64,000 nt of DNA from Psilocybe cubensis. Taxonomy: Eukaryota. The position numbers and the translations under genes are program-made. The stretch's first letter is position 1, and each line of letters begins with the position of its first letter. Below the pieces are notes generated by a model. That model was not told the DNA's origin. It saw only the letters and a program-made list of their open reading frames with translations, and ran no database searches. Below, one piece after another: positions 1-3,607 of the stretch. Location: contig CM039007.1 in the NCBI GenBank assembly GCA_017499595.2, positions 1,674,001 to 1,738,000 of the forward strand, in the 5' to 3' direction.

Positions 1-1081
1 AATATTCAGGTGAGAAAAACTGATGGCAGCAAAATAAAATACCCACAGCGCCCACGCCAAATCCAAATCCTTTGGCAGCATCCGAAGTCTGCATATCGGC
101 AGCACCGTCGTAGAATGGAGGGTTACACATTGTAAACTCGTATTCGTATTCTTCAGTCGCCCTTCAGATATAAGTAGAACCACAATGCGCTTGTTAAAAT
201 TTGATGCCAATATAACTAAATATATGATGCACACATACTCGAAAATGGGGACGAGAATAGGACCATCAATGGATGTCTCTAATATCGAGAGACGGTCTTG
301 GAGATTGTTCGCGACGACGTTGAGGCGGGCCGTGTCAATGCACTTCCTCTCGACCTCTATGTTTGAGAGGTTCAATGTCAGCGTTCAATCAACAATCCTT
401 GAATCTAATTGCAAATAGAGACTGGCTATACCTGTTCCAACCATAGACCATGCCTTGAACCGAGCACAGGCAAGCATAGGATAAATTGCGGAGGCTCCTG
501 TACCACTAATCATACAGTCATCGGATTTAGCTGCTTCAACGCGAGATACTTAGCACCTACATATCAACGCCTCTAATAGGACGGTCATCCGACAGGCCGA
601 GGGTTTTGTTCGTGTAGTTGAAAATATCTTCAATCCACAGAACGTAGTTCAATCTACATTTCTTTTTAATATCCGTGGAATCTGGTTCAGTGAATGTTGT
701 TCATGCACCTATTGGGGACCTTTTTGAATGTAAGTGCGAGTTCTGAGCACAAGCAAGGCATCTTTGACGTACTGTTGGGCACAGACGGTCTTCTGGTATG
801 GTCATGGTGAGCCCGAAGTCACGATGAAGAAGAGCAGCCGTGAACGCCCTAGCTTAAATCAGCCTAAGCATTTGAATAGATATACAGTGCTGACCTCTGG
901 GCTTCTGGGATAGTGAGGTCAACAGAACTGGTACCATCTGCATTGACAGACACACTATCATGGAGGATCAGCATTTTTAAATAGGAAGTAGACGGCAAAC
1001 GCACAATGGCTTGAGGGGAGGGAAGGCCTCTGAAAGTGCTTGATAGTCAATTGGTGTACGGTAAGGATTTCTGATATGCAT
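1..1081 (-). CDS. psiM: Norbaeocystin/baeocystin N-methyltransferase PsiM (METTL16/RlmF-like SAM methyltransferase); multi-exon, 3' part lies beyond the window start
   Basis: Manual minus-strand splicing from ATG 1081 gives [46 protein letters not shown]...[55 protein letters not shown]...[33 protein letters not shown]. It has the DIGTG SAM-binding and NPPF motifs and matches PsiM as I recall it. Absent from the ORF track because of many short introns. Confidence 0.97.
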
Positions 1082-2181
1082 AGCGGTGTATTTTGGATGA
1101 CAGGATGAGGGGAGAGCTACTGGTCTTGACCTTCAGGACACTAGCCTTATGTATCTATCAGTTAGTATAGAAGTCGACCATCGCGGGTACAATCTAATCT
1201 GTTCACAACGTGTACACAATCTTTTCAGGCATGAGGATCATGCGTGATATGATATCATCTCATGCAGGGGGTTACATTGTTTTACGTTTTCATATTCGCC
1301 GTCATAATAATACCTGTTAAATAGAAGGACCCTTTGAGTACACTTATTATGAATCGCCACGCTGCTGAAGGTATGTATTCACCGTATATTTGATCTTCTC
1401 AAAGGAAAGGCCGTCATTGAATTGAAGGTGAAGGACTAATGTTAGATAAGAGCAGTGGCATGACGAGATAATTGACTTTAAAGTATCCGATTAGACACAA
1501 AGGGAAAAGCCCAATTGGGTCAAAGGAAGAAAGTCTTTGCATTACATTCGCGTCCGGCGTCGCTTCAGTTTGGATCGCTTGGTCAAGACTTTGAGAGTCC
1601 CTCAAGACGCGATACCCAAACAGGCATAATGCATACCTTGAAGATGAACCTGTAATGATGTCAAGTTGCCAACGTGCTCTAATAATAGTTAATATATCTT
1701 GCTTCACCGAATAGAGCTACTCATTTTTGGGGCCTCAGTACGCCCTAACAATAGATAATCCCTTCTTCAGTACCGAGTAGGATTCCTGGTTCGTGTCCAG
1801 TGTCCACTCTGGGGCCGATTGAGATTTTTGGGCTCTGGAAACCCCCAAACAGTGGGGACGTAGCAACTTGGAAGACTTTTCTCCCTTCTTTTTTACGGTG
1901 GTATATTTAATTATTAGGGTGCGTTGGATATCGAAGTTCGGTCAGAGTAGGGGCACGGCAGTGGCATGGCATGGGTAATGTTGCAACAATATGATCTATT
2001 TAGGTGCGTCATTCACTGACTAGCGCCGAGCAAACTGTATTTATTTTTGGGTGCCGTAATATTTTGGGGTACAAACATACATGCTGGATATTCGTACATC
2101 TACTAATTACAATACTTGCAAATGTCTTGCATTTTTTGCGTTCGGGACATTAATGCAAACGTCCAACAATTGTGCATACAG

Positions 2182-3607
2182 CTAAGCCTTTAGAGCAGCG
2201 ACGACTTCGTTGATTCTGATCACTGTTCCGGGTTCGGTGAACTTTTCAACGATCTCTGCCCTGCAATCCTTCCTCAGACCAAGCGCGAACGAAGAACCAC
2301 CGAAATGGAACATTCCCAAGTCATCGCCACGATTGACGTGTTGACCTTCGGACACCGTGGCTTCACATGTCGAGATTTCGGTCATGCCGATGAACACAAG
2401 GAAAATGAGGCCAATTTCCTTGTTGTCGGCTTCAATAAACATAATTTGCCTTGCGGCAATATTAGAGAAGTAGACAAGAGACTTAAGGTAAGGAGGTGGG
2501 TCGTAATCGTTATCCGGGATAGGGTCGCCAATCGTGCTCGGGGCTTGCGCAAAGTAGGTACCTGGAACGTTGATGATTTTGACGATTGTCCCATTGACGG
2601 GTGCGTGCCATCGGTGGTAAGCGGTGACGTTCAAGAATCCTTGTAGAATACTCCCATGCTCGAATTGTGGGGTGAAAGGGTCATTATTCAGCAAATGCTT
2701 AAGCGAATAAGTCTCTCCTTTGAAAACTAAAGTGTCGAGAGACTGGACGTCATAAGAGACGTTGTAGGAAAGTGATTCGCAAGCAGCAGAAATGAGGGTG
2801 GTGTTGTTAACTCCACCGACGACAGGTCGGTCGATATCTCGGTTTCGAAATCTGCGATTAAAGAAGTCGTCGTAAGAGTTGAAGCCGTAGTATGGGGCAT
2901 TTTTATCGCAGAGGAAGACTTCATCAAATGCGCGTCCATTGTAATGTTTAACCATAGCAGACAAGGCCCGCTCGTTCAACCAGCCGCAATGTCTGTCGTC
3001 GAACTGGTCGGCCACAAGAACATTTCGAGAATCTTTCGAAGACAGGAACAATCCCCAGGTATCGAAAAGTTTTTTGAAGTGAAGGTTCAACCTTTGTCTC
3101 GTGAATGCAGAGAAGCCCGCTCGGGTGTTCATTAATTTGGCCATAATCATATAAACGGGAGGGCCAAGGTCTCCGTAGACGGGAGCTTTGCGAAAGATAT
3201 CGTTGAACATATTACATAGTTCCTGATAATTCCTTGGCTACACATGATAAGTAAGAAAATACAATATACATAAAGTAAAGACTAACAGAGTCCTGAATGC
3301 CCTCGAACATGTCAATAAATTCTTGGTGCACCACCGGGTCGCTTTCAATGAAAGCCTTGAATTCCTGGATAGGTTGCATGAGGCCGAACTCGTTGGAGTA
3401 ATTTCGATTGGAAGCGCGGGTAGCCAACTCTCCTATGAACTCGCTGTAGACCGCATCGCTGACAGAGAGCCATCCCATGTTTCTCAAAGACTCGGGAGTA
3501 GGACATAGTGATCTTATTGCTCTGTGTTTTCAAGTTATAGTAATTAGCGGGTGAAGTCAGCGAATAAAAACGACGTACGCCGAGTTGCACGCGGGTATCA
3601 CCTGCAT
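2182..3607 (-). CDS. psiD: L-tryptophan decarboxylase PsiD (PLP-independent, phosphatidylserine decarboxylase family), 439 aa
   Basis: Exons 3607-3579, 3521-3287 and 3237-2182 with GT-AG introns sum to 1320 nt (439 aa + stop): MQVIPACNSA|AIRSLCPTPES...EGIQDS|PRNYQELCNMFNDIF...YHRWHAP...HFGGSSFALG...VAALKA. The GGSS self-cleavage/pyruvoyl motif is present. Confidence 0.99.

Follow-up and report, generated by a model that had tools for sequence, protein, structure and literature searches.

A locus matching the psiD end of the canonical Clade II psilocybin gene cluster in a Psilocybe cubensis-type genome

Introduction

The original account of the psilocybin biosynthetic gene cluster is said to be the 2017 paper by Fricke. 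In Psilocybe cubensis, the canonical Clade II gene order is D>M>H>K (PMC10801892), and a preprint gives the Clade II arrangement as K(F), H(F), T2(R), M(R), D(R), bordered on the psiD side by a PPR gene and on the opposite side by HLH and MFS genes (10.64898/2025.12.30.697041). Two of the encoded enzymes belong to fold families that also include housekeeping proteins. PsiD, solved as PDB 8X4Q, 8X4S, and 8ZIA, shares the fold of phosphatidylserine decarboxylases (PF02666), with a GGSS self-cleavage site where the E. coli enzyme has LGST; PMC11929908 assigns roles to its active-site, tryptophan-pocket, and self-inhibitory Trp27 residues, and reports that deletion of the N-terminus or the substitution W27A raises its activity. 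PsiM, solved as the PDB 8PB3 series, 8ZIE, and 8ZIG, shares the fold of METTL16/RlmF-type RNA m6A methyltransferases (PF05971), and PMC10978996 links N247 to dimethylation and R75 and R281 to phosphate binding.

Here we analyze a 64,000-nucleotide stretch of genomic DNA (hereafter the window), at the left edge of which, over positions 1-3607, a preliminary description had placed a psiM-psiD tandem pair.

Sequence and data

The window corresponds to G000:C10:1674001-1738000 (contig CM039007.1); coordinates refer to its forward strand, negative values lie to its left, and the analysis took in about 47.5 kb of left flank. A search of the same genome returned one match for the first 3.7 kb of the window. 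Four public runs (X1 to X4) were mapped onto L001, all as contigs rather than reads, and such contigs give no strand, transcript start, or level. X1 and X2 derive from the same study and from strains other than the window genome; we treat them as RNA-like, a guess based on the coincidence of their joints with predicted GT-AG introns, as their records carry no RNA label. No intron is skipped in the X4 contig, which runs across the whole stretch and thus behaves as DNA. X3, a single 267-nt piece of depth 2, was left out.

Results

The products of both genes of the pair were compared with reference enzymes exon by exon or after splicing (Table 1). The psiD introns measure 57 and 49 nt, and exon 3 matches PDB L-tryptophan decarboxylase with E=1.5e-221, residues 89-402 being identical at 314/314 positions and residues 404-439 at 36/36. 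Overall, 427 of the 428 residues compared with PDB 8x4q/8zia are identical, in a comparison that leaves out residues 1-10 and 403. Together, the two PDB chains (402 and 37 residues) account for the 439 of the model, with the break at G402/S403. Exon 1 alone is too short a query and gave no match in PDB, and its length is consistent with exon 2 starting at residue 11 of chain 8x4q_A, which leaves 10 residues. Exon 3 matches PF02666 and PF12588 (PS_Dcarbxylase/PSDC), with the GGSS site and the E242-H296-S403 set, and every residue checked was present, namely the tryptophan pocket (L112, Y117, F289, L290, Y338, T374), W27, E242, H296, G402, and S403. Length, GGSS site, and E242-H296-S403 are the same as in 8X4Q, 8X4S, and 8ZIA, with Leu rather than Phe at position 22. 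Intron 2 is skipped in both X1 and X2 contigs and intron 1 is bridged by no listed RNA-like contig, so that one of the two psiD introns is supported.

With PsiD exon 3 as the query, the genome yielded 11 matches, namely the exon itself and 10 weaker pieces; identity is 41-45% in the best four of these pieces. PsiD-like paralogues in this identity range form a tandem pair at G000:C1:4523905-4527177 and three loci within 50 kb at C9:2395421-2444133.

The psiM gene contains 11 introns of 46-77 nt and an 11-nt micro-exon (719-709), and the codons of its DIGTG motif are interrupted by intron 5. All 11 introns are seen as joints in X1/X2 contigs, two of them merged into one joint across the micro-exon. 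Two exons matched psilocybin synthase with E=6.5e-16 and 6.6e-19, and the spliced product is identical at 307/309 positions, gapless, to the P. cubensis psilocybin synthase record P0001, and at 259/309 to Panaeolus cyanescens PsiM. The two differences from P0001 are Arg for Lys at 102, which also separates this product from the PDB enzymes, and Asn247, shared with solved PsiM, where P0001 has Met247; this 322-aa record is most likely a tagged, engineered N247M construct. In its 309 aa, DIGTG, NPPF (N183-F186), R75, and R281, the window product agrees with PsiM psilocybin synthase as represented by the 8PB3 series, 8ZIE, 8ZIG, and the aligned part of P0001. By Pfam the product belongs to Methyltransf_10 (PF05971), yet housekeeping METTL16 enzymes carry Met or Leu behind the Asn of NPPF, whereas PsiM has Asn there. 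A PF05971 paralogue on C4, 33-46% identical to PsiM in the two best-scoring segments, has Met at the 247 place, which indicates that a separate housekeeping METTL16-like enzyme exists and fits a repurposed origin of PsiM.

These observations bear out the preliminary description on every testable point; it had read the pair as co-oriented neighbors about 1.1 kb apart, one a phosphatidylserine-decarboxylase-fold enzyme with GGSS and the other a METTL16-like methyltransferase with DIGTG and NPPF. Both genes are on the minus strand, transcribed in the order psiD then psiM, with exactly 1,100 bp from the psiD stop to the psiM ATG, and the comparison of spliced products with reference enzymes that it had called for returned the near-identities given above. 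Its view of two repurposed housekeeping folds fits the METTL16-like paralogue on C4 and the PSD-like paralogues on C1 and C9. The span of 1-3607 held for psiD, which is whole, but not for psiM, which is cut, its last 101 codons lying left of the window.

Table 1. Positions of annotated features in the window and its left flank (kb values are relative to the left end of the window)
Feature	Position	Strand	Content or basis
Kinase gene	L003:4735-5963	minus	Pkinase match; between second MFS-like and bHLH genes
bHLH gene	~-17 to -18.3 kb		HLH above Pfam cut-off
Second MFS-like gene	~-10.6 to -8.6 kb		E=0.003, below Pfam cut-off; typed by Pfam and position only
psiK	-8.0 to -6.8 kb	plus	362-aa model; long exon 285/286 identical to PDB 8zic
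psiH (P450)	-6.5 to -4.4 kb	plus	Best match P. cubensis tryptamine 4-monooxygenase; open spliced frame
MFS gene (psiT2-like)	~-1.5 to -3.6 kb	minus	MFS_1 E=2.8e-13; typed by Pfam and position only
psiM	ATG at 1081, ends ~508 bp left of window	minus	12 exons, 309 aa, 0 internal stops
psiM exons 9-12	left of window, L001 993-1492	minus	aa 209-309; N247, R281
psiM intron 8 (part)	1..46	minus
psiM exons 1-8	47..1081	minus	aa 1-208; R75, DIGTG 105-109, NPPF 183-186
psiM exon coordinates	1081-1005, 954-895, 848-773, 719-709, 653-561, 505-432, 356-239, 161-47	minus
Stretch joined to psiM in RNA-like contig	1082..1591	minus	GT..AG skip 1314-1382; 9 upstream ATGs
psiD 3' untranslated region, minimum extent	2047..2181	minus	X2 contig over L001 3547-3783 = window 2047-2283
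psiD	3607-2182	minus	3 exons, 439 aa, ATG at 3607, 0 internal stops, spliced at GT..AG
psiD exon 3	2182..3237	minus	aa 89-439; PSD-type catalytic body; E242, H296, GGSS 401-404 self-cleavage site
psiD exon 2	3287..3521	minus	aa 11-88; self-inhibitory N-terminal region, Trp27; 77/78 identical to PDB
psiD exon 1	3579..3607	minus	aa 1-10; gene model
PPR-repeat gene (part)	4765..6504	minus	PPR_2 E=4.5e-10; non-cluster, right flank of psiD
GFO/IDH/MocA oxidoreductase gene	9860-11256		Pfam
GH115 glycoside hydrolase gene	12533-16484		Pfam
Protein kinase gene	21093-21794		Pfam
Second PPR gene	40633-43263		Pfam
P450, weak match	58223-58843		Pfam

Left of the window, where psiK, psiH, and one or more transporter genes had been predicted, psiK, psiH, and MFS genes were found within 11 kb. 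The best matches of psiH were PsiH of P. cubensis, Panaeolus, P. cyanescens, and Gymnopilus; it agrees with P. cyanescens PsiH at 425/491 positions with no stop, reaches about 508 aa counting the last exon, and reads through the heme motif FGYGRRNCPG. A 112-nt GT-AG intron (L002:4779-4890, about 4.7 kb left of the window) splits the heme cysteine codon. The public 439-aa PsiH record P0003 reads into this intron and stops just before the heme cysteine, leaving a protein without the heme ligand, and this model appears to be misannotated. The MFS gene that separates psiH from psiM has the place and strand expected of PsiT2 and is a candidate orthologue. Beyond the second MFS-like gene, hypothetical and kinase-like frames precede the bHLH gene, for which the name psiR is in use; the minus-strand kinase among these frames is presumably casein-kinase-1-like, judged by eye.

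The four core genes psiD, psiM, psiK, and psiH form a cluster that spans about 11.6 kb (window -7957 to 3607), and the order psiK(+), psiH(+), MFS(-), psiM(-), psiD(-) agrees in sequence and orientation with that of Clade II in the preprint (10.64898/2025.12.30.697041). The comparison of flanks covered PPR, HLH, and MFS from a set of flanking genes in the preprint that also includes sc15 and alcE; the PPR_2 and HLH matches score above the Pfam cut-off and the second MFS match is weak. Relative to the P. cubensis Clade II cluster of PMC10801892 and the preprint, gene content (with the MFS gene as psiT2-like), order, orientation, PPR flank, and MFS/hypothetical/HLH flank are the same; no structural difference was found, and the locus differs in allelic residues only. 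The earlier statement that this system had already been described is consistent with this match.

Other features were seen farther out on both sides. A Ty1/copia-type LTR retrotransposon (L005:9323-10000 and L004:3-4007), whose one long open frame of more than 1,335 aa covers gag, integrase, and reverse transcriptase, was seen some 6 kb beyond the bHLH gene, at about 24.5-28.7 kb from the window on its left side. A 532-aa open frame about 38-39.5 kb left (L006:8014-9609) encodes an APH phosphotransferase domain, of the same Pfam family as PsiK. Within the window, positions 27554-32491 hold three closely similar alpha/beta-hydrolase genes in tandem (Abhydrolase_3, Say1-like), about 1.9 kb apart, in a triplication that looks recent. 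The genes typed by Pfam farther right of the PPR gene (Table 1) are otherwise of ordinary fungal kinds.

The products depart from the solved enzymes at three residues, namely PsiD Leu22 (Phe in PDB), PsiM Arg102 (Lys in PDB), and PsiK Arg173 (Gly in PDB), and the PDB residue occurs in other runs for two of them (Phe22 in X4; Lys102 in X1, X2, and X4). Among the listed strain differences that were classed by effect, those in psiM comprise three silent changes and the one giving Lys102, and those in psiD one silent change, the one giving Phe22, and a double change giving Asn206 in X4. The latter is a two-base change at window 2885-2886 that replaces Gly, and the psiD 3' untranslated region carries a 15-nt insertion at window 2070 in X2 and X4. 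PsiD L22 is a conservative change five residues from Trp27, and PsiM R102 is probably neutral, given that Arg also stands there in the housekeeping paralogue. A term search of the main text of PMC11808438 found no mention of PsiK R173, and the terms SNP, polymorphism, and allele are absent from the main text of PMC11856550, as far as that text was available; these alleles may already figure in tables of strain variants. Each of the three differences could also be an assembly error, as they are read from the assembly rather than from raw reads of this individual.

In the gap between the two genes, a 1,468-nt X1 contig carries about 510 nt of sequence upstream of the psiM ATG. It omits a 69-nt segment bounded by GT..AG, ends that are expected in about 1% of random skips in the gap. 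The X2 contig reaches upstream only to window 1220, and the skip is seen in one run alone. The proximal 285 nt contain the 9 ATGs, compared with 4.3 in single-base shuffles, and 2.5% of 2,000 shuffles reach 9, a weak signal as dinucleotide bias was not kept. Whether the stretch at 1082-1591 represents a long leader, a minor isoform, or merged overlapping RNA is uncertain. A second upstream joint in X1, from window 1433 to 1546, was discounted as an intron, since its ends are non-canonical and 19 other letters intervene, for which G000 holds no match at up to one mismatch. Contig cover is absent at about 1640-2040, which says nothing on read-through. A 100-aa frame at 1414-1716 was considered as a hidden gene and rejected, as it has no Pfam match, and Rfam at the gathering threshold found nothing on L001. 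The CACGTG E-box was found 0 times in L001 against 1.16 expected, so that L001 lends no support to a bHLH site in exactly that form.

Discussion

Taken together, the locus almost certainly represents the canonical psilocybin cluster at its psiD end in a P. cubensis-type genome, of the Clade II form, with all four core genes open throughout. By analogy with published work on near-identical proteins, the PsiD proenzyme would cleave itself between G402 and S403 to create a pyruvoyl group, which would form a Schiff base with L-tryptophan and decarboxylate it to tryptamine, in an activity predicted to be damped by the enzyme's own N-terminal region with Trp27. PsiH, a P450, would then 4-hydroxylate and PsiK phosphorylate the product to norbaeocystin. 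PsiM, as a METTL16-derived SAM methyltransferase, would hold the phosphate via R75 and R281 and methylate the amine twice, to baeocystin and then psilocybin, with N247 presumably giving room for the second methylation. We infer in the same way that these exact alleles are active and that psilocybin is produced.

The Pfam calls of the pair, PS_Dcarbxylase/PSDC and Methyltransf_10, would also suit a mere housekeeping phosphatidylserine decarboxylase adjoining a housekeeping METTL16-type RNA methyltransferase. Such a pair is extremely improbable, and we reject it on identity and N247: both products are near-identical to solved PsiD and PsiM, N247 stands where the separate C4 paralogue carries Met, other PSD-like genes exist elsewhere in the genome, and psiK and psiH adjoin. 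Chance resemblance is excluded by the E-values of PsiD exon 3 and of the two psiM exons. It is also very unlikely that the locus is decaying or rearranged, be it through pseudogenes, a changed gene order, or an additional copy. Although P0003 ends just before the heme cysteine and there is a copia-type element some 25-29 kb to the left of the window, the truncation reflects intron read-through in that public model, so that a broken psiH is rejected; the spliced path passes FGYGRRNCPG, the psiD, psiM, and psiK models are open, the gene order is the published one, and the match is single genome-wide.

The canonical cluster could be intact and the activity of this haplotype still be altered or reduced through PsiD L22, PsiK R173, or PsiM R102. 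These residues do differ from the PDB enzymes, other runs carry F22 or K102, and L22 lies near Trp27, in the N-terminal region whose deletion, like W27A, raises PsiD activity according to PMC11929908. We nonetheless regard altered activity as distinctly unlikely: the F-to-L and K-to-R changes are conservative, Arg occupies the PsiM 102 place in the housekeeping paralogue, the checked catalytic residues are all intact, and assembly error could account for each difference. Nor are the three positions named as functional in the parts of PMC11929908, PMC11808438, and PMC10978996 available to us.

A further, unlikely scenario concerns regulation in cis. At least some psiM transcripts may begin with a long 5' leader (a minimum of about 330 nt once spliced, with the 9 upstream ATGs) that would throttle translation, or spliced RNA may cross the psiD-psiM gap. 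Together with alleles such as PsiD L22, this would control in cis how much psilocybin is made and the baeocystin:psilocybin ratio. A literature search conducted mostly outside subscription journals and excluding supplements found nothing on a psiM leader or on these coding alleles.

Overall, the system represented here is already known in detail and the locus adds nothing structural to it; its use is as a positive control for the scan. For the biology of P. cubensis, the leader or the natural alleles may provide small leads on potency differences between strains.
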